Part shown: one piece after another, positions 2 to 63,247 of the stretch
Numbering within the stretch: the first letter of the stretch is position 1
How the letters are laid out: each line of letters begins with the position of its first letter
NCBI GenBank assembly: GCA_963829055.1
Contig: CAWHHI010000004.1
Coordinates: forward strand, 576,001 to 640,000
Reading direction: 5' to 3'
Source: an uncultured Gemmatimonadaceae bacterium
GTDB lineage: Bacteria; Gemmatimonadota; Gemmatimonadetes; Gemmatimonadales; Gemmatimonadaceae
DNA: 64,000 nt
Translations under genes and position numbers: made by a program
Notes under the pieces: generated by a model
The model's database searches: none
Seen by the model: only the letters and a program-made list of their open reading frames with translations
What the model was told of the DNA's origin: nothing

Positions 2-1015
2 TTCCGCTCCCGGACGAGGTGCAACCTGTTAGGCAACCCGTGCCGCAACCGGTTCGCAGCCGGCGGTCTCGCGTCGCGTCGCGGCAAGACGGGCCCGCGG
101 CCCCTTCACACCGACATTCGCGCCCTGGCGGACGCGCGAGTCGCCGACGAGGCTGCGGCGTTCGCGGAAGCCGGCAAGATTCCGGAGGCGAAGGCGAAGC
201 TGTCGGCGATCGTGGTCCCGCGATTCCGGTGGCGCGCGGCGCACGCGATCGCGTCCGCGGCCAGCGCTGCGGAGGCGGTACCGCTCTGGCGGGATGCGCT
301 GCTCGAGGCACGGCTGGTGAACGAGCCGTCCGCACGAATCACGGCGGCGGCGTTGGCGACGGCCCTGGCGGAGACGTCCGATGGACAACTGCAGGTCGAT
401 CGCCTAACGCGCAACGCTCGGGCGATCACCAAGGCATGGACCGAGTCGGCGTTCGCGGAACAGTACGAGACGCTTCGCGAGCTGCTGGCGTCAGGCGTGG
501 GCCGAACGCGGCGCATGGACGAGCTCATTGCGGCTGCCACTCGCACGCTGAACTTCGGAGGGCAGACGGATTGGGTAACGGCGGCGTTCCAGCTGCCGTA
601 TCAGCTGGTGGATGCGTCGGGTGGCGTGTCCGCGCGCGACCAGGCGCTCTTTCGATCCGACCTGTTGTGGGGAATCCGGTTCAGCCTGTCCACGCTCTGG
701 AGCGTGGACGACGTGCGCGCGCTCATCGAGTCGGGTCGCCCCGGCAAGCGTGCGTTTGCACTGGCACTCATGAAGAGCCGCGCGGATCTGGCGCCGCTCG
801 ACCTCGTTCTCGCACTGATCGAAACGTCACTCAGCGCGTTCGAGCAATTCCATGCGTTGACCATGGCACTGAAGGTCGCGCCGTCGCTCGATCGCCCGCA
901 CCGATCGCAGCTCCGCGAGGCGATCGAGCGCGCGCGACGCACGCACCTGGTGCCAGACACGGATCGCTATGCGCTGTCGGAGCGCATTCTCGCCGCAATG
1001 TCCGACCGCGGGTAA
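2..1015 (+). CDS. Hypothetical alpha-helical protein, C-terminal part (5' end probably outside window or frameshifted)
   Basis: Frame of ORF 212..1015 is open back to base 2. GC3-rich codon usage. No family recognised. Confidence 0.6.
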   Translation, partial: FRSRTRCNLLGNPCRNRFAAGGLASRRGKTGPRPLHTDIRALADARVADEAAAFAEAGKIPEAKAKLSAIVVPRFRWRAAHAIASAASAAEAVPLWRDALLEARLVNEPSARITAAALATALAETSDGQLQVDRLTRNARAITKAWTESAFAEQYETLRELLASGVGRTRRMDELIAAATRTLNFGGQTDWVTAAFQLPYQLVDASGGVSARDQALFRSDLLWGIRFSLSTLWSVDDVRALIESGRPGKRAFALALMKSRADLAPLDLVLALIETSLSAFEQFHALTMALKVAPSLDRPHRSQLREAIERARRTHLVPDTDRYALSERILAAMSDRG

Positions 1016-1020
1016 CGATG

Positions 1021-1167
1021 GTCATTCCGAGCGGAGGCCGGAGCCGTGTCATTCCGAGCGGAGGCCCGAAGGGCCGCAGTCGAGGAATCGCGATCATCCT
1101 GGGCAGAGGGCCCTCTACCGTGCAGAGTCTCGATTCCTCGACTCGCCTGCGCTCGCTCGGAATGACA
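1021..1167. repeat. GTCATTCCGAGCG...CGCTCGGAATGAC palindromic element (MITE/REP-like), copy 1
   Basis: Terminal inverted repeats GTCATTCCGAGCG (duplicated at 1021 and 1048) and CGCTCGGAATGAC. Inner IR CGAGGAATCG/CGATTCCTCG. Internal sequence shared with the copy at 5038. Confidence 0.9.
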
Positions 1168-1239
1168 ACACTGGCTCCCCCATCGCGCGACCCATACGTT
1201 AGCCGCGTATTCCGTCCTTCCCAGAGACAACGACAACAC

Positions 1240-4200
1240 ATGCCTACTCGAGCCGCCCTGATCGCGCTCGCCGCCGGCCTGTGCGCGACGCCGACCCCCG
1301 TCGCGTTTGCGCAGCAGCAGCAACCCGACAACTCGCGCGCCTTGCACTGGCGTCAGATCGGCCCGACGCGTGGCGGCCGCGCACGCGCGCTGTCCGGCGT
1401 GCCGAGCCAGCCGAACGTGTTCTACATCGGCTTCGACAACGGCGGCGTGTGGCGCTCCACGGACTACGGCTCGACGTGGGTACCGCTGTTCGACGATCAA
1501 CCCACGGGTTCGATCGGCGCTATCGCGGTTGCGCCGTCGGACCCGAACATCATCTACGTCGGGTCCGGCGCGGGGATCATCCGCCCCGACCTCGCGACCG
1601 GTGACGGCGTCTACAAGTCCACCGATGCCGGAAAGACGTGGACGCATCTCGGTCTTCGCGACACGCAGATGATCGCGATGATCGACGTCGATCCCCGCGA
1701 CCCCAACCGGCTGTTCGTCGCCGCGCTGGGCCACCCGTACGGACCTAACGCGGAGCGCGGCATCTTTCGATCGACCGACGGTGGTCAGTCGTTCCAGAAG
1801 GTGCTGTTCAAGGACGAGTACACGAGCGGCAACGACGTGCGCATCGATCCGTCGGATCCGAACACCGTCTACGCGACGCTGTGGCAGCAGCAGCAGAGCT
1901 TCATCGAGGGGCAGGGCTTCGGCGGGGCAGGGAACGGCATCTACAAGTCCACGGACGGCGGCACGAACTGGAAGCAATTGACGGACGGGCTGCCGAGCGT
2001 GATCCAGGCGAACATTGCGCTGGCGCCGAGCAATCCGCAGGACGCTGTATGCCACCGTCGCGGGGACGATGCCTAACGCTGGCGGCGGCCGACCGGCGAA
2101 CACGACCACCGGTGTCGTGGGCTTCTTCAAGTCGACCGATGCGGGCGAGCACTGGACGCTCGTCGTCGAACAGCGCGCCGGGTGCGGGTGGCGGCAAGGT
2201 CGATCCAGCGTCCGCTCGCGCGCATCGGTGGCGGCGATCTCCCGACGGTGACCGTCGATCCGAAGAACGAGAACGTCGTGTACACGGCGTCCACCGTCAT
2301 GTGGCGCACCGAGGACGGCGGTGCGAACTGGTCCGCCGTGCGTGGCGCACCTGGCGGCGACGACTACCAGAAGATCTGGATCAACCCTAACGATTCGAAG
2401 ATCATCCTCGTCGTCGCCGACCAGGGCGCGGTCGTCTCGGCGAATCGCGGCGCGTCGTGGAGCAACTGGTACACGCAGCCGACGGGCGCGATGTATCACG
2501 TCACGACGGACAACGCGTTCCCGTACCGCGTCTGCGGCGGCCAGCAGGATTCGGGCTCGGCGTGCGTGGACAGTCGCTCCATGGACGGCCAGATCACGTT
2601 CCACGACTGGCATCCGGTGAACATCCAGGAGTACGGCGTGGCCGCGCCGGACCCGAAGGACCCGGACATGGTGTTCGGCAGCGCGCGCACGAACGTGTCG
2701 CTCTACAACCGAAAGACCGGCCAGACGACGAACGTCGGCCCGACACCCGATCAGCGCGCGGGCGGATTCGGGCGCAACGTGCGAACGATGCCGATCGCCT
2801 GGTCGCCGGTGAATCCGAGCGTCCTGTTCTACACGTCGAACGCGGTCTGGAAGTCGACCGACCACGCGCACACGTGGACGCGCATCAGCCCCGATCTCAC
2901 GCGCCAGACGTGGGAGGTGCCCGCGACCGCAGGCAAGTACGCCAGCACCGTGACGCCGGCCCCGCTAGGCAGCCTGACGGCGATGGCGCTCTCGCCGCGA
3001 GAGCCTCAACGTGATCTGGACCGGCAGCGACGATGGCATGATCCAGGTGACGATGGACGGCGGTGCGAAGTGGACGAACGTGACGCCGCCGGCAATCAAG
3101 CCGTGGACGCGCATCTTCAACATCGACGCCGGTCACTTCGACAATCTCACCGCGTACGCCGCCGCGAACACGATGCGCATCGACGACATGAATCCGCACT
3201 TCTGGCGGACGCACGACGGCGGCAAGACGTGGACGGAGATCAATACCGGCATCGCGCCGGGCGGCGTCGCGAACTCGATTCGCGAAGATCCGCGCAAGAA
3301 GGGTCTGCTCTACGCCGCGACCGAGTTGCAGGTGTGGGTGTCGTACGACGATGGCGATCACTGGGAGTCGCTCAGCTACGACATGCCGGCCATCTCGGTG
3401 CGCGACATCCAGGTGAAGGACGACAGCACGTGCCTGTGCGCGGATCTCGTCGCCGGCACGCATGGCCGAGGCTTCTGGATCCTCGACAACCTCACGCCGC
3501 TGAGGCAGATGGCCGACGCGCGTGCGGCGCAATCCGCCGGCAATGCGTTCCTGTTCAAGCCGGCGACAGCCGTGCGCGTGCGATTCGGCACGAACGACCC
3601 GACGCCGTGGCCACCCGAGCTGCCGGCGGGTGAGAATCCGCTGCCCGGTGGCGATCATCGACTACAACCTCGCGAAGGACGCGTCGTCGCCCGTCACGCT
3701 GGACGTCGTCGACGCCGCGGGGAAAGTTGTGCGTCACTACTCGAGCGAGGATCGTGTTCGCGACCCGAACCCGGCGCTCAATCCGGCGGCGTACGACAAG
3801 CTGTGTCAGGCGACGCCCAGCGCGCCGGACTGCGCGTTGCCGTTGTACTGGCCCGCGGCGCCGATCCGGTTGTCGACGCGCGCTGGCTTCCATCGCTTCA
3901 CGTGGGATCTGCACTTCGACGCGATCGGTGAGGACCCCGACGCCGGCGGACGAAGGGCGCGCAGGGCGCCGTGCCGCATCACACGTACGACATGCCGTAT
4001 TCGCCCTGGGCTCCGCCGGGCACGTACACCGTCCGCCTAACGGTGGACGGCAAGCGATACACGCAGCCGATCACGCTCAAGCTGGATCCACGCGTGAAGA
4101 CGCCGGCGACGGCGCTCGCGCAGCTGAATGCGGTCACGCGCGAGACGTACGACGCGGCGGTGGCGGCGCACAACGCCTACGAACAGGCACGTGCGCTCGT

Positions 4201-4567
4201 GGCGCAACTCGACAAACAGTCGGGCGAGGACGTCGTGGCGTTCAAGGCGCAGGTGGAGGCGCTTGCCCCAGGCGGTGCGGCGGGTCGTCGCGGCCGAGGA
4301 TTTGGAGGTGGCGGACCCGGGGGCGGAGGTGCCCCGCCCCCGCCCACGCTCGAGAGTGTCAGCACGGCGATGATGGCGGCGGCTATGGCGATGCAGGGAG
4401 CGGACGTCGCGCCTACCGCGGGTCAGGTGGCGGTGGCGGCAAAGGCGCGTGCGGATGGGGCCGGCGTCATCCGGTCCTGGACGACGCTTCGGACGACCGG
4501 GTTGGCGGCTCTGAACGCGAAGCGGCGAGCGGCGGGGCAGCCGGCGATTGTCGTTCCGGGCGCCTAA
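1240..4567 (+). CDS. Exported BNR/VPS10 (Asp-box) repeat beta-propeller protein, glycosyl hydrolase-like; frameshifted in assembly
   Basis: Signal peptide MPTRAALIALAAG..., WRQIGPTRGGR start and many S/T-x-D-x-G-x-T/S-W Asp boxes across ORFs 19..2076, 2182..3633, 3011..3931 and 3971..4567. C-terminal PGTYTVRLTVDG motif. Confidence 0.85.
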
Positions 4568-4594
4568 CGTACAGAGAAGCCGTTGTGGGAAAGG

Positions 4595-5196: not shown

Positions 5197-5198
5197 GC

Positions 5199-6267
5199 CT
5201 AGTCGCCAGAGACCGCAGTCGAACCCGCCGGCGTAGTGGGCGTCGGCGGATGCCAGGGCGGCAACCAGCGACGCACGACCAGCCAGCCCACCAGCGCCAG
5301 CGCGCCTAACGGGATCGAGCACACCGAGGCTGGCGACGAACGCCGCCACCAGGCCGACGAAGTTGCGCCACGCCTGACGGAACGCCACCAGGATCGGCCC
5401 GTCGCCCGCCACCGGCACGATGATCGGCGCGTGCTCGTGCACCGCGATCGTCAGCGTGCTCATCGCGGCGCGCGTCTTGAGGAAGCGCAGCCGGCCCTCG
5501 TACCGCTCGATCTCCTCACGCACGCGAGCCAGCTCGTGTTCCACGGACAACACATCCTGAAGCTTGCCCGTGCGGTTCGCGAGCAGATCGATGATCCGCG
5601 CCTCGAGCCGATGCGCGTTCTCGACGCGAGCCGAGATGTCGACGAATTCCTCGCTCACGTCCTCCGCGTTCACGTTCACTGACTCGACCTTGCCAATGGG
5701 CGTGAGTCCGGCGAGCGCATCGTCGAAGCGCTCGGCGGGGATCTTCACCTCGAGCGACGCGGTTCTGGCCTGATCGCGGCCTCCCTGGATCGCGGTATTC
5801 GCGACGAAGCCACCGACGCGCCCCGCGACGAGGCGGACGCGCGCGATCGCGGCATCGAGCGAGTCGACCTCGATGCTGGCCGTGCCATTCCGGACGATCA
5901 TCGATGCGGCCGACGATGTCAGCGCAACCGCGGTTGCCGCAGGCATTCCCGGCTCTGCTGCCGTCGAGCCGTCCGCGGACAAGGGTCTCGCCGCGTCCAT
6001 CGATTTGCGCCCCGACGCGCTCGAGTACCCAGCGGAGCCAGCCATGATGCCGCGTCCGGCCTCGTTTTGCGGCGCCGGCGCCATGGCGGCCACTTCGAGT
6101 TTTTCCGTGACAGAGCTGGACAGCGCGCTCGGAGCGCGGTCACTGCAAGCGACGATGAGGCCGCCCGCCGTCAGGACGGCGACGACGAGAATGGCGGGGC
6201 CGGGACGACGCGCGGCGAATCGGAGGCGTGATGAGCGATGCCGGGGACGAGGCGATGACGGGCGCAT
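5199..6267 (-). CDS. DUF4349-family lipoprotein (frameshift near 3' end)
   Basis: Lipobox LIVAC. MIVRNGTASIEV...EDVSEEFVDISARVEN...LSVEHELARVREEIERYEGRLRFL signature. Corrected frame ends ...AVSGD* at 5199. Confidence 0.85.
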
Positions 6268-6473: not shown

Positions 6474-8300
6474 ATGCTCCTGTCATTCCGTTTGCTTCCC
6501 GCGGCCGCCACGGCCGCGTTCATCCTTTTGCTGGCCCCCGGCGCTCGCCTCAGCGCACAGGCGGCGGTGCAGTCGGCGCCGATCAGTGCTGTACGCTACG
6601 AGGTCACGTTCGACCAGAGCACGGCGCCGACGCGCACGCTGCGAGTTGGCATGACGTTCGACGTGACGGGTCCTGGGCCGGTGCTCTTGTCGCTGCCGGC
6701 GTGGACGCCGGGCGCGTACGAGATCTCGAACTTCGCGCGCTGGGTATCCAACTTCTCCGCCACGTCAGGCGGCCGCCCACTCGGCTGGGACAAGCTGGAC
6801 TACGACACGTGGCGCGTCCGCGCCGATGGCGCAAAGAACGTCACCGTCACATTCGACTATCTCGCCGACTCGCTCGACAATGCGATCGCGTGGGCCAACG
6901 GGAACTTCGTGTTCTTCAACGGCACGAACGTCTTTCTCTATCCCGAGGGACGGCCCACCGATTTCGCGGCGACCGTCTCCGTGAAGACGGATCCATCGTG
7001 GCTCGTGACGACGGGCATGAAGCCCGCTGGCGCGCCACGCAGCTACTCGGCCACCAATTACCACGATCTCGTCGACATGCCGTTCTTCGTCGGCGTGTAC
7101 GATGTGGACAGCGCGCAGATCGCGAACAAGTGGGTGCGCATGGCGTCGTGGCCCAAGGGCGGCCTGAAGGGCGAGGACCGCACGACGTTCTGGGATCACC
7201 AGAAGAAAGTGCTGCCGGCGATGGGCACGGTGTTCAATGACATCCCGTTCGACACGTACACGACGTTCATCGTCTTCGATTCGACGTCAGGCGGCGGCAG
7301 CGCGCTCGAGCATCAGAACTCGCACCTTGGCATCTACACGCCGCTGCTCGCGCAGAGCGTGCTGTTTCCGTCCATCACGGCGCACGAGATGATTCACGCA
7401 TGGAACGTGAAGCGGCTGCGTCCCGCGGACATGGTGCCTTACAAGTACTCGCAGCCGCAGCCGACGACGTGGCTCTGGGTGAGCGAAGGGATCACGGACT
7501 ACTACTCGGACGTGGTGCTCACGCGCTCGGGCGTCGTGGACTCGACGGGGTTCATCATCCTCACGCAGGGTAAGGTCGAGGAGGTGAACGCGTCCCCGCC
7601 GGTGGCGCTGGAGGATGCGTCGCTGTCGACGTGGATCCATCCGACCGATGGTTCGGGCTACATCTACTACCAGAAGGGATCGCTCGCCGGATTCCTGCTC
7701 GACATCATGATCCGCGATGCGAGCGACAACAAGCGAAGCCTGGACGACGTGTTCCGCGAGCTCTATCAGTCGGCGTACAAGCAGAAGTGGACGGGCTTCA
7801 CTGGCGAGCAATGGTGGGGCGCGGTCAGCCGAGCGGCGGGCGGGAAGTCGTTCGATGACTTCAACGCGAAGTACATTGACGGTCGCGAGCCGATGCCGTT
7901 CGCATCGGTGCTGCCGCTCGGCGGCTTCCGCCTAACGGTGGATTCCATTCGCGAGCCGCGTCTCGGTGTGACCAGCGCGCCGGACTCGTCGGGCGTGCGC
8001 GTAGCGGAAGTGCAGGCGGGCAGCCCGGCGGAGGCGGCCGGAATCAAGCCGGGGGATCTCCTCCTGCAGGTCGGCGACATCCCGGTGCGCGACGCGTCGT
8101 TCGGCGAGCAGTTCCGCACTCGTTATGCAAAGGCCGAGGGGACGAACGTTCCGGTGAAGGTGCGGCGCGGAGATCAGACGGTCGACCTGCAGATCGCGGT
8201 GCGGATGGCGGTGCGTACGGAGCAGCGCCTGATGGTGGATCCGAATGCATCGCCGAAGGCGGTGCGCATCCGGAATGGGATTTTGAAGGGGACGACGTAG
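6474..8300 (+). CDS. M61 family glycyl aminopeptidase-like metallopeptidase with C-terminal PDZ domain
   Basis: Signal peptide, LPAWTPGAY, ALEHQNS, HEMIHAWNVKRLRP (HExxH), WVSEGITDYY, YYQKGS, PDZ (GSPAEAAGIKPGD). Confidence 0.92.
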   Translation: MLLSFRLLPAAATAAFILLLAPGARLSAQAAVQSAPISAVRYEVTFDQSTAPTRTLRVGMTFDVTGPGPVLLSLPAWTPGAYEISNFARWVSNFSATSGGRPLGWDKLDYDTWRVRADGAKNVTVTFDYLADSLDNAIAWANGNFVFFNGTNVFLYPEGRPTDFAATVSVKTDPSWLVTTGMKPAGAPRSYSATNYHDLVDMPFFVGVYDVDSAQIANKWVRMASWPKGGLKGEDRTTFWDHQKKVLPAMGTVFNDIPFDTYTTFIVFDSTSGGGSALEHQNSHLGIYTPLLAQSVLFPSITAHEMIHAWNVKRLRPADMVPYKYSQPQPTTWLWVSEGITDYYSDVVLTRSGVVDSTGFIILTQGKVEEVNASPPVALEDASLSTWIHPTDGSGYIYYQKGSLAGFLLDIMIRDASDNKRSLDDVFRELYQSAYKQKWTGFTGEQWWGAVSRAAGGKSFDDFNAKYIDGREPMPFASVLPLGGFRLTVDSIREPRLGVTSAPDSSGVRVAEVQAGSPAEAAGIKPGDLLLQVGDIPVRDASFGEQFRTRYAKAEGTNVPVKVRRGDQTVDLQIAVRMAVRTEQRLMVDPNASPKAVRIRNGILKGTT

Positions 8301-8649: not shown

Positions 8650-10419
8650 ATGTCAGACCCCCGGCTCCCGCGATCTCGTACCACATCGCTCGTCGCGATT
8701 CTCCTGCTCACCGTGGCCCTGGCCGCGTTTCTCGCCTACGAGGCGTGGGACGCCGGACGGTCGCACCGGGCCACCGCGAAGCGCGCCATCAACGACTACG
8801 CCAAGTTCGCCGCGTGGGAGTTCTCCGTCAGCGCGAAGGAAGTCCTCTACTCCACGTTGGCGTGGGCGTTCAGCCCTATCGGAATGCTCGACGCCCGCGA
8901 CCTCGATCGGCCGCTGCCGGGGCCGTCGATTCTCGATCACGAGAAATCCTCACACCTTCTTTGCGCGCGGGATTCGTCGCGCTACTTCTTCCGCCTCGAC
9001 CTGCGTGACGCGTCGTTCGTGACGAGCGGCGACGTGCCGGCCGCGTCCATGCGGAAGTGGATGCTCGACACGCTGCCGAAGAACGCGAAGACGTACAAGC
9101 CGGACTGGAGCTACGAGGTCGTGTCCGGGAGCGTGGACGGGCCATCCGCGCGCGATCGTCTACCAGCTCAAGCACGACCGGGCGGGCCACCCCGCCGTGG
9201 CCTACGGGTTCGAGCTGTGCTTCGCGCAGTTCGCGTCCATCGGCCTGCAGAAGGTCATGGCGTCCTACGCCATCCTGCCGCCGTCGCTCACGGGTGGCGT
9301 GCCTAACGACTCGGTGTCGAACGACTCGATCTTCTCGGTGAAGGTGTTCGACGGCGGCGGGCACCTCGTGTTCAAGTCGAACGTCCAGTACCCGGATACG
9401 TACACCGGGGCCTACAAGCTCGACTACTTCGGGGGGCTCAAGAGCGTCATCGCGCTTCGGCCGACGCTCGCGAAGACGCTGCTCATTGGCGAACTGCCGA
9501 GTGAGCGACTGCCACTCCTGCTTGGGGTGCTCGCGCTGAGTGTGGGTCTCGCCGCGATCGGCGTCATGCAGCTGCGGCGCGAGAGCGAGCTGGCGCGCCT
9601 TCGATCGGATTTCATCGCGAGTGTATCGCACGAGCTGCGCACGCCACTGGCGCAGGTTCGCATGTTCGCGGAAACGTTGCTCCTCGGTCGCGTACGGAGC
9701 GAGGAGGAGCGATTGCGATCGCTGCAGATCGTCGATCAGGAAGCGCGACGCCTGACGCATCTCGTCGAGAACATCCTCCAGTTCTCGCGCGCAGAGCGTC
9801 AGGCGATTCGACTATCGCCCGTGCCGGTCGAGCTGGGCGCGCAGGTGCGAGAGGCGGTCGAGGCGTTCGCGCCGGTGGCACGGGCGCGACACGTCGTGGT
9901 GGAGACGACGCTCGAGAGCGACGTGGTGTGCGTCGTGGATCCGGCCGCACTGCGGCAGATCCTGCTCAATCTCCTCGACAACGCGGTGAAGTTCGGTCCA
10001 CTGGGGCAGACGGTGGCGATCACGCTGCAGCGGAGCGGTGACAACGCGGTGATCATCGTGGATGATCAGGGACCGGGCGTCCCTCGTGAGCATCGCTCAC
10101 GTATCTGGGAGCCGTACCAGCGTCTCGAGAGCGCGGTGACCGCGGCGGTCGCCGGCAGCGGCATTGGCCTCGCGGTGGTGGCGCAGCTCGTCACGTTGCA
10201 CGGCGGTCGCGCGTGGACCGATGCAGCGCCCGGCGCCGGAGCCCGGTTTGTCGTTGAAATCCCGACTGGCGCCGGACGGGAACAGGGAACGGGGAACGGG
10301 GAACCGCGATGGCGCGACAGGGAACCGGCGGGACGACGACGTCAGCGCGGCAGCGCGCAGCCTCCGTTCCCGGTTCCCAGTTCCCGGTTCCCGAGCACCG
10401 ACTCTCCTCCAGGAAGTAG
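8650..10419 (+). CDS. Membrane sensor histidine kinase 1 (HisKA + HATPase); frameshifted, 3' end approximate
   Basis: Two TM helices, H-box SHELRTPLAQ, N-box NLLDNAVKF, DQGPG, GSGIGL. ORFs 8650..9306 and 9197..10540. Confidence 0.9.
10278..10392. repeat. Inverted heptamer arrays (GGGAACN)x4 ... (NGTTCCC)x4
   Basis: 10278-10305 and 10365-10392 are mutually complementary arrays. Confidence 0.85.
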
Positions 10420-10425: not shown

Positions 10426-11115
10426 ATGTCTCGCGTTCTCGTCGTCGAAGACAATGCCGATCTGGCTTTCGGTCTCCGCAACAATCTCGAGATCGAGGGC
10501 TACGAAGTCATCGTCGCCGACGATGGGCCGACCGGCCTAACGCGGGCGCGAGAGGGCATGCCCGACCTCGTCATCCTCGATCTCATGCTGCCCGGCATGG
10601 ACGGCTACCGCGTGCTGCGCGCGCTTCGCGCCGAGGGCTTCGAGCGGCCGGTGCTGATCCTCACGGCGCGCGGGGAGGAGGCGGACAAGGTCATCGGGTT
10701 CCGGAACGGCGCCGACGATTACGTGACGAAGCCGTTCGGCGTGCTGGAGCTGCTCGCACGCATCGAGGCGTTGCTGCGGCGCTCGACGGGCGCGGTGCGC
10801 GCGCAGGCATCAGCCGCGGCTGAGCGGTTCGGCGACGTCGAGGTCGATCGTTCGGCACGGACGGTGACGCGACAGGGAGTGCCTGTGTATCTCGCGCCGA
10901 TGGAGTTCGAGTTGCTGCTTGCGCTGCTGCAGCGTCGCGGAGCGGTCGCGACACGTCAGGAGCTCATGCGGGAAGTGTGGGGACACCGGGCTGTGGTCGT
11001 GAGTCGCACGGTCGATACGCACATCGCCGAGCTGCGGCGCAAGCTCGAGCATGATCCGGCGGAGCCGCGTCACATTCTGACCGTGCGAAAGGCTGGATAC
11101 CGACTGGAGCGCTGA
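10426..11115 (+). CDS. OmpR-family response regulator 1
   Basis: Receiver VLVVED...DLMLPGMDG...GADDYVTKPF plus winged helix with SRTVDTHIAELRRKLE...VRKAGY. Confidence 0.95.
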   Translation: MSRVLVVEDNADLAFGLRNNLEIEGYEVIVADDGPTGLTRAREGMPDLVILDLMLPGMDGYRVLRALRAEGFERPVLILTARGEEADKVIGFRNGADDYVTKPFGVLELLARIEALLRRSTGAVRAQASAAAERFGDVEVDRSARTVTRQGVPVYLAPMEFELLLALLQRRGAVATRQELMREVWGHRAVVVSRTVDTHIAELRRKLEHDPAEPRHILTVRKAGYRLER

Positions 11116-18558: not shown

Positions 18559-18682
18559 GCGCTGGTATCGAGCGTACGGATTCTGTATGCTCTGCGCCTG
18601 CCGATGACTCAGAGTCCTCGCTGTCGCTCGATGACACGCTTCTCCGCCTTCCGCCCTCCGCCTTCCTCAGGCCCGCTCCGCG

Positions 18683-20785: not shown

Positions 20786-20850
20786 CGCGAGTCTTCCTTG
20801 TCGCCGCGTGTGAGCGGCTCGGTCGTTTATCCGGTCGTTAGGCCGATCCG

Positions 20851-39959: not shown

Positions 39960-39962
39960 GCG

Positions 39963-40010: not shown

Positions 40011-40119
40011 TGCTGTTGTCCGCCGCGAAGCTTCGCGTACGACGACCGGCTATGCATACATAGCCGTCGCTCTCTGGAGACGGCAAGCCGAATGCCGTCC
40101 GGTCGAACCGGCACCGGAC

Positions 40120-40526: not shown

Positions 40527-40838
40527 TCGTTCCGTCCTCCTGCGTGCTTCGTCGGCGAGCCGTTCGACGGCCGCCGCTGAAACGCCATCGACTTCGATCG
40601 TCTTCGTTCGACTCGTCGCACCAGTCACGATGCGCACGCCTCGCCGAGGAACCGACAGGCGATCGGCCAGGAAATGCAACGAGCGCCTCGTTCGCGGCGC
40701 CGTCGACCGGCGGCGCGTGAAGCCGAACGCGCAGCGCGCCGTCTAGCACACCCACGATCTCGTTCCGCGACGCGCGCGGCTGGAGCCGCACCCGAAATCG
40801 TACGCCCGTCCCCGCGAATCCACCGTGAGCAGGCTCAC
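40523..40838 (-). CDS. yggU: DUF167 / YggU family protein; frameshifted
   Basis: VRLQPRASRNEIVG..LRVRLHAPPVDGAANEAL..VRIVTGATSRTK. Confidence 0.88.
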
Positions 40839-41435: not shown

Positions 41436-41574
41436 ACGCGAAGTGTGATCGGCGCGAGTCGGGACCGAGCAAGTGGTTTAAGCGCACGAGTCTTTCCAAC
41501 ATCATTACACGGGAACGCCGTGCTGGCACTGTCCAGCGGCGCCAGCTTACGCTCAACCCGACGCAATCCCAATC

Positions 41575-44860: not shown

Positions 44861-44863
44861 TCG

Positions 44864-52055: not shown

Positions 52056-55000
52056 ATGCCATGCATTCGCCGAGCGGTTGCTCGCGGTTGCACCTTCGCT
52101 GTCCTCGCCACGGTCGTCGCGTGTTCTGGTGACGACGGTGTCGGAATCGATACGCCCGTAGGAACATCCACTCTTGCGGTCCGCCTGTCTCCCAAGAATG
52201 ACTCGTTAGGCGTCGGAGAGACCAGGCGCTTTACGGCCCAGGTCGTGGGCCGGGCCGGCGTGACGCACAGCACACCTGTCGCGTGGGTATCGCTCAACAA
52301 CGATGTCGCCACGGTGAGCACATCGGGCGATGTCACGGCGTTGGCGCCGGGCTTCGTCAGCATCGTTGCGACCGTCGGCACGAGCGCCGACACGGCGAGC
52401 GTCTACGTTCCCAGTGCCCTCATGGTCGAGCCGAACGCGGTCGTCACCGCGGTGGGTGAAGAAGTGAAGTTCGCTGCCAAGAAGCGAAGCGGCGCCGGCG
52501 CGTCCGGCAACACCTTCACGTGGTTCTCGTCCAACACGAAGATCGCCACGGTGACGGCGGACGGCATGGTGACCGCGGTCGGGCCGGGCGAGGTCACGCT
52601 CATTGCGTCCTCGGGAACACAGACCGGAAGCGCAGTCGTCTCCGTTCGCACTAAGGACATCGCATCGCTGCGCCTCGCGCCGGCGACCAGTTCCGTCTAT
52701 CCCAAAGCGACGACGCAGCTCCAGATCACGGCCTACGACGATGCCGGCCGCGCCATGGCGCTGCCACAGGGCACTGCGCGGTGGAGTACCTCCGACGCGA
52801 ACGTGCTCGTCGTCGACGACCTCGGAACGGTAACGGGGAAGGCAAAGGGCTCGGCGGTTGTCACCGCACGCATCGGCTCCAAGTCCGCCACCGCATCGGT
52901 GAACGTGCTCGACGAGCCGGTCGCGACGGTGAACGTCGCGCTCGACGCGTCGACGCTCGATCTCGGTCAGGTCACGCAGGCCGTCGCGACGCTGAAGGAC
53001 GCGACCGGCTCTACGCTCGGCGGCCGCACTATCGCCTGGCAGAGTTCGAATCCGGCCATCTCGACTGTGAACGCGCTCGGCGTCGTGACTGCAGTGGCGC
53101 GTGGAAGCGCGACGATCAGCGCGATCGCCGACGGTAAGGTCGGCGGTGCACCGGTGACGGTCGCGACCAAGCCGATCGGCTCGGTCGCTATTTCGCCGAA
53201 TCCGGCATCGGCAACCATCGGTCAGTCGGCGCAACTTTCAGCAGTGGTGAAGGACGCGGCAGGTGCCGCGCTCGTCGGCCGCTCGATCACGTGGGCCAGC
53301 AGCAATGCTGCTGTCGCCAGCGTTTCCAGCACGGGCCTGGTCAGTGCCGTTGGCGCTGGCTCGTCAACGATCTCGGCGACGGCCGATGGCATCTCGGGCC
53401 AGGCGACGTTTACCTCCGCCACCGTCAAGACGGCGTCGGTCGTGATTTCCCCCGGCTCGCCTAACGTGCAAGTCGGTCAGGACGTGCAGCTCAGCGCCAC
53501 CGCGTATGACGCGGCCGGCAATGTGCTCGCGGCGCGAGTCCCGGCGTGGAGCAGCTCCAATCCGACAGTCGCGACGGTATCGAACTCCGGCCGCGTCACA
53601 GGCGTGTCGAAGGGCAGCGCGAACATTACCGCCGCGGTCGACGGTAAGAGCTCGAGCGCAGCGGTGGCAGTGAATGCCCCGCCGCCGGCTCCCGTCGCGT
53701 CGCTCACGGTCTCGCTGAGTTCGTCCGCGTTGAACGTCGGACAGTCGACGCAGGCGGCGGCCGTGGCCCGCGATGCGGCCGGCAATGTACTGACGGGACG
53801 TGCGATTGCGTGGAGCAGCGCGGCGACCGACGCTGGCGACAGTGTCGAGCACCGGGCAAGTGGCGGCGATCGCCGCGGGCTCGGTCAGCATCGTCGCGTC
53901 GAGCGAAGGCGTGACTGGTTCTGCTACCCTCGTCGTGGCCATCGCCGCGCCGCAACCGGTGGCGACGGTATCGCTGTCGGCCACGTCGACGTCGATGCTG
54001 TTCGGTCAGTCGCAGCTCATCGCGGTCTCGGTGCGCGACGCGTCAGGCAACCAGCTCGACGGGCGCACGATCGCGTGGTCCAGCTCGAATCTTGGCGTAA
54101 TCACGGTTTCACCTTCGGGTCAGGTGCAGGCCGTGGGCGCTGGGTCGTCGACGATCATGGCGACCAGTGAAGGCAAGAGTGGCACGATTTCGATCACCGT
54201 TGCGGCACCAGTCGTGCCGGTATCGTCGGTGAGTCTCGCGGCGGGGTTTACGTCGCTGGCGCTGGGCCAGACCATGCAGGTCACCGCGACGCCGAAGGAC
54301 AGTCATGGCACCCCCCTAGCGGGCCGCACGATCACCTGGTCGAGCTCCGCACCGTCAGTGGCGTCGGTGTCGCAGACCGGTATGGTGACGGCGCTGACCG
54401 CAGGGTCGGCTGTCATCAACGCGACGGTTGAAGGCGTCACGGGATCGCTTCCGATAACGATCAACCCGGCTGGTGGAACGGTCGCGACGGTTCGCGTCAC
54501 ACTCGCGAGCGCGGCGATCAATGTCGGCCAGAGCACACAGGCGACGGCGACGGCGAGCGATGCCGGCGGCACGACGGTCGCTGGCGGAACGCCGACGTGG
54601 GCAAGCTCGAACACGTCCGTCGCGACGGTGTCGGCAAACGGTTTAGTGTCCACGGTCGCAGCCGGCCAGGCCACGATTAGTGCTACCATGGCAGGCAAGT
54701 CGGGCGGTGCGTCACTCAGCGTGAGCACGATTGCGACCGGCGGCTCGCTGGCGACGCTCCCGGAGTTGCCGCGGTCGGTGCCCAGCGCCACGGCGTCCGC
54801 GCCGTCACGCGTCGTTCGGATTCCGGCGGGTGGTGATTTGCAGGCGGCGCTGAATGCCGCCCAACCAGGCGATGAGCTGCGCCTGGCCGGCGGAGCAACG
54901 TGGACGGCGAACTACACACTGCCGTCTCGTGCCTGCAGTGCCGTGGACCGCTGGATCACGGTGCGAACGGATATCGATGACTCGCAGTTGCCGGGGCCGA

Positions 55001-56512: not shown

Positions 56513-58037
56513 TCAGCCGGCGGTCTCCGCATACCGCGACCGCAGGCGATTCACACCCCAGTGAAACGTCAGCGCGCTCGGCCCGAGCTCCTGGCTGTAT
56601 CGCTCGGAAACCAGCGGGCGCTCATCGACGTGGATCCCGAGCGGCCTGCCTAACGCTTGAAGACGCCAGTTGACCCGCAGATTCACCTCGTAGGCCGCGC
56701 GCAGCGCGCGAAAGGTCAGCCGATCGATTCCGCCCTCGAAAATCGGGAAGCGTTGTACGTATCGCCGAAAATCCTCGTACGAGCGTGGCGTGAAGACCCG
56801 ATCCAGCGCGTCCGTGTTCCACAGCGGCTGAGTGATCGCCTTCTTCGTTCGTCCGAACGCCGTTCGCGGCACTCCTGCCTCCTCGAGCAATCGACGCGGG
56901 ATCGGCCGGTCGTAGTCGGTGCCCAGCACCCATGGTCGCAGCGGTTCGGAGTTCGATATCGCGTAGATCGACGGATGCCGGATGTAGCCGAGGGTCGGCA
57001 CCGGGAAGTGGATGAATCCGGAGCGGAGCCGAAATTCCGTGAGGCTGCTGCCTCCCGGATAGAGCATCAGGAGCTCCGTGTTGACCCGTCGGCTGACCCG
57101 GTTCCACACGGCATCACCGAGGTATCCGGTGTACAGCGTCCGGCCGCCGAGGACGTCCGCAAGCGGCGCGAACACGACCTCCTCTCCGCCCGCGCCGCAC
57201 GCCAGAAATTCGGCTTCGGGAAAGCTGTCGAGTGTTTGATAGGTGAGCCGGTCGAATTCCAGCACACGGAGCCCAAGCGCCGCAGCAATCTCGGCGCCGC
57301 TGTCGTCTTCCTCGTCGTATCCAGGGCGCGCCCGTCCAAAGGTGATCGCTTCGCGGCAACCGACCTCCAATGCCAGGAGCGCTACTGCTGGCGAGTCGTA
57401 GCCGGACGAAATCGTCGCGATCGGAGGGTACCGCCGGCAGCGCGCCGTATGCTCCGCGTTGTCGTTGACGGCGCGGACGGTGTCCCGCAGGTAGCCGATG
57501 TAGTGGTCGTAGTTAGTGAATTCCGGCGGGAGGCTCTTGTCCTCGACGCGAATCGTGAGCGCCTGGTCGATGAACACGTTGCAGTGCATGAAGACACGCA
57601 CCTCGCCGCCGGACTTCGTCCGCACGCTCGGGCGGTACCGGCGGTACCCCCGCATGTTCGTCATCAGGTCGAAGTGGTAGTACTTGTACGCTGGATCGAT
57701 TTCCTCGCCCGCGACCACGAGCGCAAACACGAGCGAGTTCGAATGACGATCTCCTCGCCGCGCCGAATGAGGTGGAGACGTTCCAGCATGTGAGTTGGAG
57801 TCACGAACCGGACTCCATTCTCCGCTAGCTCACCCCCGAGCCGAAGCAGGCGATGGCGCTCGACGGGAGCGACGCGTCGAAGGGACCATCCCAGGCCCCT
57901 TCGACGAACCGATGGGCTCCCGTTTCCACCCAGGGGCCGTGATCGACAACGATGTCGCCAGCGCCACGGCGGATACGGGCGCACCATGCGAGGCGAGGAA
58001 GAGACGAACGCGACCGGTAGTCGAAGCGCATGTCCAT
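56513..58037 (-). CDS. Divergent asparagine-synthetase-like / adenine-nucleotide alpha-hydrolase protein; frameshifted
   Basis: N-terminus LPRLAWCA..HGPWVE..FVEGAWDGPF; PP-loop ISSGYDS; TGYLGD; YDRPIPRRLLEEAGVPR..FG..K. Confidence 0.7.
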
Positions 58038-58470: not shown

Positions 58471-60844
58471 ATGTCCTACTCGCGCCCGCCCAGGCTTGTG
58501 ATCATCGCATGTGCGGTGCTCGCAGCCTCGTGCGACGCTTCATCAGACGACGTCGGCGCCCGCTCGCTTGGTCCGGCCAACCTGGAAGTTCACGGTACCG
58601 GTACCACCGGATCCGCCCGATGCATCAATGGTGCCGACAGTCTCTACGCGTCGGTGTACCCAAAGTCGATATCGGCGACGGACGGCGAACAGGCCACAGC
58701 ATACGTGAGTGTTTTCACAGCCGACGGTGGGACGGTCTCCGCGAGCCAGGTTCGCTGGTCGATCTCCGATACCACGATCGCCACCATCGCATCGTTCGAC
58801 CCTAACGGGCGACCACTCGCCGTTGGACGTGCCGCCGGCACCACGGCGCTCGTGGCCACGTGCGGCGACCTTTCCACGTCGGCACCGCTGACCGTTTCCG
58901 GCAACGCGGGCGCTCCGCCGCCGGCTGATACCACGACCACGAAGGCGCCGTCGATTGCGGTGTCCGTGAAGCTCACGGTGCAGTCCATCACTCTGGGCCA
59001 GACGGCACAGGCGACGGCCACCACCACCAATGACACCGGACACCCGGTCGTGCTGTCGGGCGTGGAGTGGTCGAGCTCCAATGCCTCGGTCGCGAGCGTG
59101 AATGCGAGCGGGCTGATTACTGGCGTGGCGGCCGGCAGCACGACGATCAATGCGAAGGTCGGGGACTCGAACGGTACGGCCGAGCTATCGGTCGCTGCCG
59201 CGCCGCAGCCAACGCCAGCCGACCGCGCCGACGCCGCCGCCGACGGATGTCACGCCCGGTTCCGATGTGGGCGCCACTGCGCCGGAGCTGCCCCGGTCCG
59301 AGGTCAGCGACGCGCGGTTCGTGGGGGCAGGCGGCAGAACGATCCGCGTCGCCAGCGGCGGCGATCTTCAGGGGGCGCTCAACGAAGCGCAACCGGGAGA
59401 TCAGATCGTCCTCGCTGCCGGCGCGTCGTACTACGGAAACTTCGTGCTTCCCGCGAAGGCGACCTCGAACCCGTGTTCGGCGTGGACGATGATCACCACG
59501 GAAACGTCGTTGCCATCAGAGGGCGTTCGTGCGACGCCGAGCAACGCCGGGAGCTTCGCCAAGATCATCACGCCTAACTACGACGCCGCGCTCAAGACTG
59601 ACCGCGCCTCGTCGTGCTGGCGGATCGTCGGCGTCGAGTTGACGGTGTCGCCCGACTTCGGCGGCATCCAGTACGGTCTCATTTTCATGGGTGATGGCTA
59701 CGCGCGGTCACTCTCCGAGGTGCCCCAGGGCATCGTGCTCGACCGCACGTACATTCACGGGCAATCCAACACCAATGCCCAGCGTTGCGTCGCGCTCAAC
59801 TCGGCGCGCTCGGCGATCGTCAACTCGTGGGTGTCCGACTGCCACGGTCGTGGTTTCGACTCACAGGCGATTGCCGGTTGGAATGGTCCTGGACCGTACC
59901 TGATCGAGAACAACTTCATCGCCGGTGCTGGCGAGAACATCATGTTCGGTGGCTCGGATCCGAATATCCCGAACCTCTCGCCGTCGGACATCACGATCCG
60001 CCGCAACCACGTCTGGAAAGACCCCTCGTGGAAGGGCGCGTGGACGGTGAAGAACCTGTTCGAGCTCAAGCACGCCAAGCGCGTGCTCGCGGAAGGCAAT
60101 GTCTTCGAGAACAACTGGACGGATGGGCAGAGCGGCATGGCGATCGTGTTCAAGACGCTGTCCGACAACGCATCGGCGCCGTGGACGCAGACGGCGGACG
60201 TGACGTTCCGCTACAACATCGTCCGCAACTCGCCGCGCGGCTTCAACCTCCAGGGCATGGAAGGCAGCGTAGGCTCCCCGGTCGCACGCGTTCGGATCGA
60301 GCAGAACCTGTACGCGGACATCGGCACGGTTCAATGGAACCGAAGCGGTGGCTGGCTCAATCTCATCACGCATAACCCGAGCGACGTCATGCTCCGGCAC
60401 AACACCATGGTTCACAACGGCGCGGCCGGCTCGCTCTCGACCGCTGGTGCGTCCGGTGCAGGACTGGCGCTTACGCTCGACTACGGCGACGGCCAGGCAC
60501 GCCGCTTTGGGGTGGACGACAACATCTTTACGAATCCGAACGGCTACGCGACGCACTACTCGTCGATGGCCGTCGGGACAGCCAGCATCGCCGCGTTCGC
60601 CGGCAATTCGTGGTCGTTCAACCGCAACGTTGCCGCGGGCGTTGATCCGCTGTTCGCTCCTCTTCACCCGTCGACGAGCTTCTACCCGTCAACGGTCGCT
60701 GCAGTCGGCTTCGTGAATGCCGCCGGCGGTGACTATCGCCTGTCTCCGAGCAGCCCGTACAAGGGCAAGGGTGAGGGCGGAACGGATCCGGGTGTGGACT
60801 TCGACGAACTGGCCCGACGTACCGCAGGCGTCGTCTCCCGCTAG
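58471..60844 (+). CDS. Surface lipoprotein: 2 Big_2 repeats plus beta-helix domain, paralog of 52056..56364; frameshift near 59220
   Basis: Lipobox LAASC; two Ig-like repeats; Pro/Thr linker; head closely matching the first paralog (FDSQAIAGWNGPGPYLIENN, VKNLFELK, DVTFRYNIVRNSPRG, DPGVDFDELARRTAG). Confidence 0.9.
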
Positions 60845-60905: not shown

Positions 60906-60936
60906 CTTCATCGATTCTCCTGCCGAAGCGCGGCTC

Positions 60937-62013
60937 CTACCGGTCTCGCTCGGCGAGCGCCTCGACGATGCGCTCGGCGGCATGACCGTCCCACCCCTCC
61001 GGGATGCGTCCCTGTGGCTTCCGCGTGGGTCGAGTTCACTCACGAGTCCCGCCACTGCCGATGGGTCGCGAACGAGCACGTTCGTCCCTTCGGTGATCGT
61101 CACCGGCCGTTCCGTGTTGTCACGCACCGTGAAACACGGAATGCCTAACGCCGTCGTTTCCTCCTGCAGTCCCCCGGAGTCCGTGACGACGGCGAACGCC
61201 GACTGCACGAGATCGAGCATCGCGAAATAGCCGATCGGATCGAGCACCAGGACTTCGCCGAGGTCGATCCCCGCGCGCTGCCAATCGCTGACGCGTCCGC
61301 GGGTGCGCGGGAAATACTACCGGGCCTGGTCGTCGCAAGCTGACGCAGCGCCCGCGGCGATGCGCCCAAGGCGAACAGGGTCGTCGACGTTCGAGGGACG
61401 GTGGAGCGTGACCACGATCGCGCCATCGCCAACGCCCAATTGCGACCGAAACCCACTCGCTCGCGCGGCTGGCAACGCGTGCATGCAGCGTGTCGATCAT
61501 GACGTTCCCCACGAACGCGATCTCCTCATCCGGTTCGCCTTCGCGCTTCAGCGTTTCCGACGCGTCGCGTGACGGCGTGAGGAGCAGGTTCGCGAGACGA
61601 TCCGTGACGATACGGTTGATCTCCTCCGGCATCGTCCGATCGTAGCTTCGCAGCCCGGCTTCGACGTGGGCGACCCGAATACCGAGCTTCGATGCGACCA
61701 GCGCTGCCGCCACCGTCGAATTGACATCGCCGTACACGAGCACCCAGTCCGGCCGCCGATCGCACGAGAACCGGCTCGAGGCGCTCCATCACGCGCGCGG
61801 TCTGAACGGCGTGTGACGCGGAACCGACTTCCAGGTTCTCATCTGGCGTTGGAATGCCGAGCTGTTCGAAGAACTGCTCCGACAGCGCCAGCGTCGTAGT
61901 GCTGACCGGTGTGAACGATCGATCTGCTCCCAACCGGCGACGCACACCGCGCGATGTACCGGTGCCAGCTTTGGAAAGTTCGGACGCGCGCCGGCAATGT
62001 GGAGGAGATGCAT
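60937..62013 (-). CDS. wecB: Non-hydrolysing UDP-N-acetylglucosamine 2-epimerase; frameshifted
   Basis: GARPNFPK, HTGQHYD, VYGDVNST, HVEAGLRS..MPEEINR, GNVMID, TDSGGLQEET, TERPVT..GTN, WDGHAAERI. Confidence 0.93.
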
Positions 62014-62019
62014 CGCGCG

Positions 62020-63247
62020 TCAGGACCGAGCGCGCGTCCGCGCGCGCGACGCCGAGCGCCGACGTCGTTGACGAGGCGCGCGATGTCCTGCACATCGATA
62101 CGACCAGTCGTCGTGCGCGACGCGCTCCGATTGCGCTGCGACGCGCGGCCGGATCGCTGCCCGCGAGCGACCGCCGCACGGAGCGCGTCGACCCAGTCGT
62201 CGAACGTCGTTGCGCACGTGGCGATGTCCCGCACTTCCGAACTTCGGGCAGCGGCGACGAGACGATCGGAAGCCCCGCCGCGGCGTACTCGCGCAGCTTG
62301 ATCGGGTTGACGGAGAGCGTGAGCTCCGTCATGCGGAACGGAACGATGCGACGCGTGAAATCCGCGGCTGTAGGCCGGCAACTCCGCGTACGGCCGTCGG
62401 CCGAGCACGAACACGTTAGGCCTGCGTTCCAGCTCGGCTGAGATCCGTCTTCGCCGAGCCGATGACGACGAACGAGTACGGCAGCACGTCGGCGAGCCGT
62501 CCGATCAGCTCGACGTCCACCCACTCGTGAATGAGCCCGAAGAATCCGACGCGAGGCTCCGGGAATCTCGGCGAGGTCCGCCGGCAGCGCGCCGGTCGCC
62601 AACGCGCGAGGCGAAGTGCTCGAAATCGACGCCGTGCGGTACGTAGTGCACGTTGCTGACGAATGGCGGCGCAGCGCTCCGCCAGGTCCTCCGCGGACGC
62701 GATCACCAGGTCGGCAGTCTCGACAGAGCTCGCGCTTCGCCGCGCTCCATCGTCGCCGGATCGAATCCCTCGAACGCCGACCATTTGTCCACGCAGTAGT
62801 ACATCGTGAACGCGCGGGGCAGATGCGCGAATGTACGGCGCACACTGCGGTACGAACGAGCAGAGGAGCGGAGCGCCGAGTCGAGCCGAAGTCGCTTCGA
62901 GCTCCCGCCCGATCGTGAACCGGTAGAGCGAGCGCGTTCGCCTGCTGCGCGATCGCCGACTGCGGGATACGGCAGCGCCGGCGGCGTCATGACGTGCAGT
63001 CGGTCGAGCACCGGCCGCGATTCGCGCAGCATCGCCTTGGCCTTCGTGCAACAGTCGCTTGCGATCGTACGCGCTCGTCAGCTTCGGCGTTCGCATGCCC
63101 GGCCGCTTCGATCCAGAGCACATCGTTCGTTCGCGAGAAGCGCCGCATGATGTGGTGCTTGCTGGTCGGGTCCGCGGTCCAGTCGTTGGCGAACGTGACG
63201 AGATCGAGACCGCCAGCGAGCGGCGGCGGACTGAACGAGTCGGGCAT
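62020..63247 (-). CDS. GT4-type glycosyltransferase (TuaH-like); frameshifted
   Basis: ANDWTADPTSKHHIM, YYCVD.W, GFFGLIHEWVD, NPIKLREYAAAGLPIVS. Confidence 0.82.

Follow-up and report, generated by a model that had tools for sequence, protein, structure and literature searches.

Among the hyper-abundant words of bacterial DNA are the DNA uptake sequences (DUS) of Neisseriaceae and the uptake signal sequences (USS) of Pasteurellaceae, together called DNA uptake enhancing sequences (DUES). Their numbers are 1,892 in N. meningitidis and 1,471 in H. influenzae according to PMC2817400. The HIP1 word (highly iterated palindrome 1, GCGATCGC) of cyanobacteria is now also argued to be an uptake word, as stated in PMC13756078. 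The present analysis deals with the eight-base word GCCTAACG, which recurs along a 64,000-nucleotide stretch of DNA from an uncultured Gemmatimonadaceae bacterium (hereafter the window; C4:576001-640000, GC content 0.65-0.69). The source genome, designated G000, has a length of 7.78 Mb in 20 contigs. The hyper-abundance of GCCTAACG is real, genome-wide and lineage-specific. No earlier report of its enrichment was found, and the whole word, as GCCTAACG or CGTTAGGC, was met in no paper of the literature search.

The anatomy of the word matches the uptake-sequence and HIP1 class point for point, biased uptake itself excepted. Like DUS and USS, GCCTAACG is a short non-palindromic word, present at about 0.6-1.9 per kb and hundreds-fold enriched, equal on both strands and in all reading frames, and placed where coding tolerates it. 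A peptide imprint, absence from recently acquired DNA and occurrence in several related genera are further features in common with the uptake sequences as PMC2817400 describes them. Among the differences, GCCTAACG occurs in Gemmatimonadota and is an 8-mer, not a 9-12-mer. HIP1 is likewise a hyper-abundant 8-mer with conserved positions and non-random, quasi-regular spacing, and is lacking in some lineages (PMC13756078). However, GCCTAACG is asymmetric and not its own reverse complement, whereas HIP1 is a palindrome tied to two methylases, and no methyltransferase family was found to track GCCTAACG. The word is also identical in sequence to the core of integron attC sites, both in cassette arrays of the relatives G021 and G019 and in attC-aadB (PMC12901181), but its genomic copies are single, unpaired, without hairpin context and inside conserved genes, and the integrase does not track them. 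Among the options listed in an earlier note on this DNA, which had been made from the letters alone, an uptake-sequence- or HIP1-like word gives the best fit, although this can be held only tentatively.

Abundance, strand neutrality and placement of the word

The abundance of the motif in the window was compared with dinucleotide-preserving shuffles. The core CCTAAC occurs 37 times (26 on the forward and 11 on the reverse strand) against 5.95 expected; the largest shuffle contained 14, and the observed number was reached in none of 100. The 37 coordinates and the strand counts of the earlier note were all exact. Its statement that most of the cores extend to the 8-mer was also correct, as 28 of the 37 (20 forward, 8 reverse) are full GCCTAACG where 1.11 would be expected. 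The enrichment under Markov models, which had been proposed as a check, holds genome-wide. G000 carries 5,004 copies (0.64 per kb), while the order-2 model expects 102 (49x, z = 485) and the order-3 model with the core masked expects 19.3 (about 260x). GCCTAACG has the highest z among all 8-mers of the genome and the runners-up are all overlapping words. The 6-mer core amounts to 7,103 copies, and all 20 contigs hold the 8-mer at 0.48-0.80 per kb.

The sequence logo revealed G (79%) CCTAAC G (90%) with nearly zero information beyond these eight positions; GCCTAACG is therefore a bare 8-mer and no piece of a longer repeat. Variants at the outer positions are present in 827 (ACCTAACG), 428 (CCCTAACG) and 435 (GCCTAACA) copies, and the inner positions are strict; one inner variant, GCATAACG with 583 copies, shows 11-fold enrichment. 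None of the single-mismatch variants is depleted in G000, the lowest observed/expected ratio being 0.65, and the T-variant precursor words GCTTAACG, GTCTAACG and GCCTAATG have ratios of 2.2, 1.0 and 1.6 respectively. The gaps between copies have a mean of 1,549 bp. Gaps shorter than 300 bp are rarer than random (9.1% against 17.6% for a Poisson process), and very long gaps are in excess. The 16S rRNA genes of G000 were uninformative, the word being in neither of them and 3 nearby cores lying outside the gene.

Chi and KOPS (FtsK orienting polar sequence) motifs are co-oriented with replication and modestly enriched. GCCTAACG resembles these words of RecBCD/AddAB and FtsK in being short, asymmetric and over-represented in core DNA, but it is without polarity and its enrichment is far higher. 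The two strands of the genome carry 2,457 forward and 2,547 reverse copies. When the copies were sorted by the GC skew of the surrounding 100 kb, the forward to reverse counts were 402:426 for positive, 614:606 for negative and 1,441:1,515 for flat skew, that is forward shares of 0.486, 0.503 and 0.487. In 50-kb bins the motif skew was weakly correlated with both GC skew (r = -0.16) and gene strand (r = -0.13). By its split of 26:11 (binomial p = 0.02) the window ranks second in skew among 110 non-overlapping 64-kb windows; p<0.05 was obtained in 7 of them, with about 5.5 expected. The skew of the window is thus local noise within chance, and the description of the motif as strand-skewed in the earlier note does not extend to the genome. 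The same note had offered a Chi- or KOPS-like signal, that is a polar word oriented with replication. This local skew is the point in its favour; the genome-wide counts, the even forward shares and the low correlation refute it, and with no polarity relative to GC skew both readings are rejected as scarcely conceivable.

The position of the copies relative to genes was analysed with open reading frames (ORFs) from a home-made caller based on third-position GC, which gave 7,145 ORFs covering 70-84% of each contig; the frame and intergenic shares are approximate. Codons were counted in 2,813 confident genes (third-position GC content of at least 0.78, length of at least 600 nt). Intergenic copies number 1,156 of 5,004, which is roughly proportional, the genome being about 80% coding by this caller. 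The 1,817 copies on the coding strand are distributed over the three frames as 199, 643 and 975, and the 2,031 antisense copies as 162, 1,298 and 571. All frames are occupied genome-wide, in accordance with the earlier observation of the word inside coding sequences in different frames. An in-frame stop (TAA or TAG) is created by few copies (199 of the 1,817 sense and 162 of the 2,031 antisense ones), all of them located at ORF ends.

The codon usage of the confident genes revealed how strongly the word is imposed on coding DNA. Within GCCTAACG lie 943 of 1,878 TTA, 420 of 2,308 CTA, 633 of 5,242 CCT and 309 of 4,011 AGG codons. The claim that the word forces otherwise rare codons was thereby confirmed, and so was the central inference of the earlier note, a signal at the DNA level, the word being independent of frame. 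The tripeptides [SPTA]-L-G are written xCG-TTA-GGC in 943 of 3,732 cases and [SCRG]-L-T as xGC-CTA-ACG in 420 of 1,880; the word is also present in 633 of 1,290 x-P-N-[VADEG] and 309 of 2,823 x-V-R-[LPHQR] contexts. The permissive sites are near saturation, with 11-49% of the permissive peptide contexts occupied. In rpoB of G000 all four copies fall on conserved Leu-Gly or Leu-Thr, positions at which 10 motif-poor Gemmatimonadota relatives have CTC, CTG, CTT or TTG, and the TTA codon of G000 is two synonymous changes apart from the common CTC/CTG. The placement of GCCTAACG in genes is mostly by synonymous recoding. The dipeptide Pro-Asn showed an observed/expected ratio of 1.51 in G000 (208 vs 138) and 1.82 in a small sample of G014, a genome of another genus (27 vs 14.8), compared to 0.92-1.16 in samples of three motif-poor genomes. 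This excess resembles the proteome imprint of uptake sequences described in PMC2817400.

Distribution and conservation among relatives

The RpoB sequence places G000 in Gemmatimonadota, with metagenome-assembled genomes of Gemmatimonadaceae as the nearest at 82-86% identity. The word was counted in 30 relatives and, separately, in 300 genomes sampled evenly across the phylum, with the reversed word as control; the unpublished genomes G013, G079, G199 and G118 enter these tallies as rows only. The genus of G000, g1, is rich in GCCTAACG in 7 of 7 genomes, namely G000 and six congeners having 2,501-5,112 copies each in assemblies of 260-1,170 contigs. G014 holds 6,360 copies in 5.1 Mb, and a 120-kb sample of it gave the same logo with 1.15 8-mers and 1.93 cores per kb (z 71). 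Among the 30 relatives, G010 has 605 copies and G030, from another family, 345, while G018 has 194, which is below its reversed-word control of 360, and the other 20 genomes have 3-65 copies, also below their controls. The sample of 300 contains the rich genomes G236 (3,896 copies), G293 (4,141) and G300 (4,469), whereas G289, of the same genus as G236 and G293, has just 66. Intermediate abundance of about 450-1,100 copies (2-6 times control) was found in G160, G189, G288, G115, G125 and G294, and in G207, G168 and G214 of a second family. Across the two samples the moderately enriched genomes number about ten, and all sampled genomes from other families of the class and from other classes are poor.

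The survey of related genomes suggested earlier thus found enrichment in the genus g1 and in several other genera, and the distribution in Gemmatimonadota is patchy, with rich and poor species within one genus. In the rich genome G300, whose four replicons measure 5.3, 1.1 and 1.0 Mb and 21 kb, each has 12-17 copies per 20 kb sampled. Unlike DUS and USS with their 'dialects', no alternative hyper-abundant word was seen in the motif-poor genomes G008 and G017 (100 kb each), in which no 8-mer has z above about 10; for G010, G030 and G018 the sampled 40 kb, 16 kb and 20 kb, respectively, do not suffice for such a search.

The conservation of individual copies was analysed for 21 8-mer sites in positions 4001-46000 of the window against five congeners, whose aligned DNA is about 77-80% identical to G000. 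Of these 105 site-by-genome pairs 55 were aligned, and the other 50 fall outside the fetched loci or the BLAST alignments. GCCTAACG is exactly kept in 31 of the 55 aligned pairs (56%), compared to 23,442 of 123,062 (19%) for other 8-mers. This positional conservation is accompanied by turnover, as G000 also has lineage-specific sites at which the congeners differ at two or more bases. In rpoB, where N and C denote the two frames of the frameshifted gene of G000 and the number is the residue in the frame, the sites are C140, C409, C732 and N74 in G000, C140, C358, C409, C721 and C1070 in G014, and C140 in G030. As the permissive sites are limited and 11-49% of them are occupied, positions in common may reflect convergence as well as descent.

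Motif-free DNA and sites in the window

The word is absent from patches of DNA that appear foreign. The three largest deserts of G000 are at contig ends (C6:5441-55038, C6:591809-623330 and C11:1-46790; 31-50 kb) and encode housekeeping genes, not mobile elements. They include second copies of FtsK, DAHP synthase, PepA, FolD and AroC which are 47-59% identical to the copies elsewhere in G000. On account of these divergent second housekeeping copies the deserts are read as foreign DNA, either assembly chimeras or imports, and they are probably chimeric joins or contaminant. The contamination estimate of G000 (CheckM-type) is 3.95% and the completeness estimate 85.9%.

The sites of the window and its motif-free patch are summarized in Table 1. 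The patch is syntenic in the congeners and in G014 at 77-84% identity, and its orthologues in four congeners and G014 have the word at normal density, often at mutually shared positions. At these shared positions the patch in G000 carries words that are off by 1-3 bases (mostly 1-2), for example GCCGAGCG, GCCGAACG and GCCCAACA. The congeners, at 82-83% identity to the patch, are no closer to it than the motif-poor genome G268 at 85%, which is the best among 167 scored genomes of the family (34 unscored); none of the 167 is a close donor. Contigs from two other public runs span the left border, and among the listed contigs none spans the right one. From this comparison the patch has the appearance of an imported allele whose source was a motif-poor lineage, with a local assembly problem as the alternative in view of the many frameshifts in metH.

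Table 1. Copies of GCCTAACG, isolated CCTAAC cores and the motif-free patch in the window
Feature	Position	Strand	Remark
core CCTAAC (6-mer only)	28..33	-	
GCCTAACG	402..409	+	
core CCTAAC (6-mer only)	1744..1749	+	
GCCTAACG	2071..2078	+	its TAA is the stop of the long ORF 1..2076
core CCTAAC (6-mer only)	2386..2391	+	
GCCTAACG	4035..4042	+	
GCCTAACG	4562..4569	+	
GCCTAACG	5304..5311	+	CCTAAC core in 3/3 aligned congeners, full 8-mer in 2
GCCTAACG	7930..7937	+	G000 only; 4 aligned congeners differ at at least 2 bases
GCCTAACG	9301..9308	+	kept in 3/4 aligned congeners
GCCTAACG	10535..10542	+	kept in 3/5 congeners
GCCTAACG	11399..11406	-	kept in 5/5 congeners
GCCTAACG	12600..12607	+	G000 only; congeners have GCCGAGCG or similar
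core CCTAAC (6-mer only)	13168..13173	-	
core CCTAAC as TCCTAACG	14362..14367	+	full GCCTAACG here in 4/5 congeners
GCCTAACG	15414..15421	+	kept in 5/5 congeners
GCCTAACG	18553..18560	-	
GCCTAACG	19701..19708	+	kept in 4/5 congeners; G002 has GCCTAGCG
GCCTAACG	20546..20553	+	kept in 5/5 congeners
GCCTAACG	20836..20843	-	
GCCTAACG	21300..21307	-	G000 only; congeners differ at at least 2 bases
GCCTAACG	23772..23779	-	
GCCTAACG	23895..23902	+	
GCCTAACG	26384..26391	+	
GCCTAACG	29088..29095	+	
GCCTAACG	30307..30314	-	last copy ahead of the motif-free patch
motif-free patch, 12.6 kb	30315..42891	.	asnB-like gene, unknown genes, metH in at least 4 frames, YGGT
GCCTAACG	42892..42899	+	first copy past the patch; also in G001
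GCCTAACG	44271..44278	+	
core CCTAAC (6-mer only)	44863..44868	-	
core CCTAAC (6-mer only)	47520..47525	+	
GCCTAACG	52204..52211	-	
GCCTAACG	53459..53466	+	
GCCTAACG	56648..56655	+	
core CCTAAC (6-mer only)	58801..58806	+	
core CCTAAC (6-mer only)	59573..59578	+	
GCCTAACG	61143..61150	+	
GCCTAACG	62414..62421	-	

The quality of the assembly bears on a base-calling or assembly artefact of the long-read assembly as the source of GCCTAACG. The rpoB gene of G000 (C19:47991-52509) is split over two frames near C19:51343-51350, and metH, asnB and pepP of the window are in pieces; these breaks indicate residual indel errors, which are probably also behind the completeness estimate, and they count in favour of an artefact. 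On the other hand, the word is about as dense in the six congeners and in other genera, the synonymous recoding at the rpoB sites involves two bases and does not have the pattern of a miscall, and the scarcity of stop-creating copies, with their confinement to ORF ends, also speaks against it. Near-identical sequence is present in contigs of at least 20 public runs from 16 studies, which are rhizosphere, soil and sediment metagenomes. A weaker point is that contigs of four runs cover the sites at 29089 and 30308 at about 99% identity, with none of the best-supported differences located there. A base-calling artefact, which the earlier note had named as the outcome that would overturn its claim, is answered by the congener copies and the two-nucleotide changes in rpoB, and this explanation is refuted for practical purposes.

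Integron core, candidate readers and interpretation

The relation of the word to integrons was analysed in the motif-poor relatives and in G000. The attC consensus has the R'' box RYYYAAC and the R' box GTTRRRY, and GCCTAAC is the R'' of attC-aadB, according to PMC12901181. GCCTAACG contains this integron core as GCCTAAC / GTTAGGC and fits both boxes. The seventh position in the words of G000 is C in 5,004, T in 827, G in 428 and A in 132 copies, Y being preferred as in GTTRRRY. In motif-poor relatives the word is rare save in dense one-strand clusters. The cluster G021:C95:1-26000 has 26 CGTTAGGC on one strand with conserved flanks. In the first 20 kb of this contig 24 of 26 GTTAGGC have GCCTAAC (21) or GTCTAAC (3) at 65-129 nt upstream, and the attC at position 761, the sole one folded (both strands, DNA parameters), gave an imperfect hairpin in which R'' pairs with R'. 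G019:C3:1-9000 contains 8 one-strand CGTTAGGC R' sites, and the R' spacing in both clusters is about 500-650 bp; here, too, R'' sites of the form GCCTAAC or GTCTAAC precede them by 65-129 nt. Judged by this layout, the two clusters are chromosomal integron cassette arrays. A tandem-repeat origin of the G021:C95 clusters was rejected as TRF finds 0 arrays, and no integrase match was obtained on that contig.

The copies of G000 do not have this organisation. Inverted pairs at 50-150 nt are not in excess (+/- 73 vs -/+ 61, +/+ 69 and -/- 84), and the genomic copies, being unpaired and without flank structure, are on these features not attC sites. A cassette array was considered beside the intI gene of G000 (C20:208041-208958), but the 11 same-strand sites there have neither R'' nor conserved flank and form a chance run. 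A perfect 55-bp palindrome at G000:C18:97494-97548, with GCCTAACG and CGTTAGGC at its ends, is among the very few inverted pairs; it resembles a hairpin, which could be a terminator or an attC-like site standing alone. The integron integrase profile TIGR02249 exceeds its cut-off in 24 of 36 genomes, both rich and poor ones. Full-length intI is present in the poor G289, G007, G008, G009, G012, G016, G089 and G124, and weak matches only were obtained in the rich G002 and G004. The motif-rich G300 has a full-length integron integrase (G300:C2:837000-857774, 422 bits) with several CCTAAC/GTTAGG pairs 88-90 nt apart on the 3' side of intI, which suggest a cassette array oriented as intI. The literature on the attC core word with integrons in Gemmatimonadetes yielded nothing on GCCTAACG.

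The reading favoured here is that molecular drive has spread a word for uptake or self-recognition resembling DUS, USS and HIP1, a proposal we hold with somewhat less than even confidence. A protein of a DNA-uptake or recombination route would prefer double-stranded DNA with GCCTAACG, and fragments bearing the word would be taken up and recombined more often. Mutations creating the word would then spread by molecular drive and those destroying it would be replaced, so that the word would come to fill nearly every position tolerated by coding on both strands and would stay out of recently arrived DNA. Uptake or transformation as the process, like the identity of the receptor, is what we infer. 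G000 has uptake machinery genes, namely DprA, a ComEA-like HHH_3 domain, a PilM-PilN-PilO cluster with a PilQ-type secretin and two pilins, and two further pilins; ComEC was found in 31 of 31 genomes, motif-poor ones included.

Several observations weigh against this proposal. The competence genes are also present in motif-poor relatives and so do not explain the distribution of the motif. No receptor candidate was found and, unlike for DUS, no ComP-like protein was identified; an orphan pilin tested for this role (one pilin profiled) has orthologues in G001 and G005 only, with similarity limited to the N-terminal helix elsewhere, and gives no phyletic signal. The search returned no paper on natural transformation in Gemmatimonadota. 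The copies are not paired as terminator inverted repeats, unlike many DUS. That every replicon of G300 carries the word would be expected of a cell-wide process no less than of uptake, and the 12.6-kb patch shows that motif-less DNA does enter, whatever the route. The uptake model also offers no explanation for the word being identical to the attC core of integrons.

The main rival of an uptake word is a binding site of a chromosomal protein unrelated to uptake, such as a non-polar self-marker against a nuclease or defence system, or a nucleoid or segregation site, with the word kept by selection on each copy or on its overall density. The positional conservation (56% vs 19%), the short-range spacing more even than random and the word on all replicons of G300 are in agreement with it, and the scarcity of methyltransferases in the richest genomes would accord with a self/non-self system of another kind. 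The nucleoid and segregation sites known so far, however, come in tens to hundreds of copies and not as exact 8-mers in the thousands, and self-markers such as Chi are polar and few-fold enriched. The graded intensities across genera also look like accumulation and decay, not like an all-or-none function. The nucleoid-protein option of the earlier note stays as a rival, but no candidate protein was identified for it, and we consider this explanation unlikely. The tie to integron and tyrosine-recombinase biology appears less probable again. It holds that the genome is full of R-box half-sites recognised by the integron integrase, whose role could be that of attG-like secondary sites, of decoys or of sites used by an IntI-derived protein. 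The fit to the published RYYYAAC / GTTRRRY boxes and the attC-aadB R'' (PMC12901181, as quoted above), the seventh position with its preference for C over the other three bases, the restriction of dense 8-mer clusters in motif-poor relatives to cassette arrays, the frequency of integrases in the family and the attC-like pairs beside intI in G300 all point to such a tie. Against it, the integrase does not track the motif across rich and poor genomes, the copies of G000 are unpaired at attC distance and lack flanking structure, and purine variants of the RRR part are not enriched (observed/expected 0.65-2.2). Synonymous recoding is not what any known recombinase activity would bring about, and insertion sites by the thousand within essential genes would be detrimental.

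Methylation and repair drive in the style of HIP1 or very-short-patch repair, in which a methyltransferase marks the word and mismatch repair converts near-matches, is in our estimate improbable too. The asymmetric 6-bp shape of CCTAAC, as in adenine-methylation sites, is counted in its favour. G000 also holds a large MmeI/Eco57I-like methyltransferase with Type IIG / DrmMI-like matches (G000:C8:73551-78317), which adjoins an SNF2 helicase with DrmD/ZorD/DpdE-like matches, and a fragmentary D12-class methyltransferase; HIP1, according to PMC13756078, is recognised by two methylases. The methyltransferase-SNF2 pair was considered as the reader of the word and rejected, as it is conserved in rich and poor genomes alike, the helicase partner being kept at 44-48% identity in the rich G236, G293 and G014 and the poor G289 and G008 (5 of 5 tested). 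The repair protein Vsr (PF03852) is absent from 8 of 8 motif-rich genomes searched and present in 3 of 23 others. The methyltransferase families PF01555, PF02384 and PF00145 have no match in G000, and in a selection of 21 genomes (7 rich, 4 intermediate and 10 poor) none of them follows the motif. With neither Vsr nor a methyltransferase family following the word, the methylation-site option of the earlier note loses its footing, and the lack of depletion among the single-mismatch variants also argues against this drive. The richest genomes G000, G004, G236 and G293 have no strong match in the three methyltransferase families, while PF02384 is strong in 9 of 10 poor genomes and most of the motif-poor relatives show several such matches. 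Restriction-modification content may vary inversely with the motif, in a small sample and with phylogeny ignored.

Hyper-abundant recognition words are known from very few lineages, namely Neisseriaceae, Pasteurellaceae and cyanobacteria, and their origin and receptors are debated. Gemmatimonadota is an environmental phylum of soil and rhizosphere with no described transformation system, and here GCCTAACG occupies as much as half of the coding positions that permit it. Species rich and poor in the word are found in one family and even in one genus (G236 and G293 vs G289), so that profiling could point to the reader protein. In G000 the word is also a practical marker which flags the foreign or chimeric DNA of contig ends and the putative imported allele of the window. 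Its identity with the attC core is unexpected and testable. It is a long shot, but this identity may be no coincidence, the genomes of several Gemmatimonadaceae lineages being saturated with a half-site of integron integrases or of a protein derived from them, and uptake, recombination or cassette traffic being keyed to one word. If true, natural transformation and cassette capture would be linked in a new way, with a genome-wide uptake or self signal coupled to the integron system.

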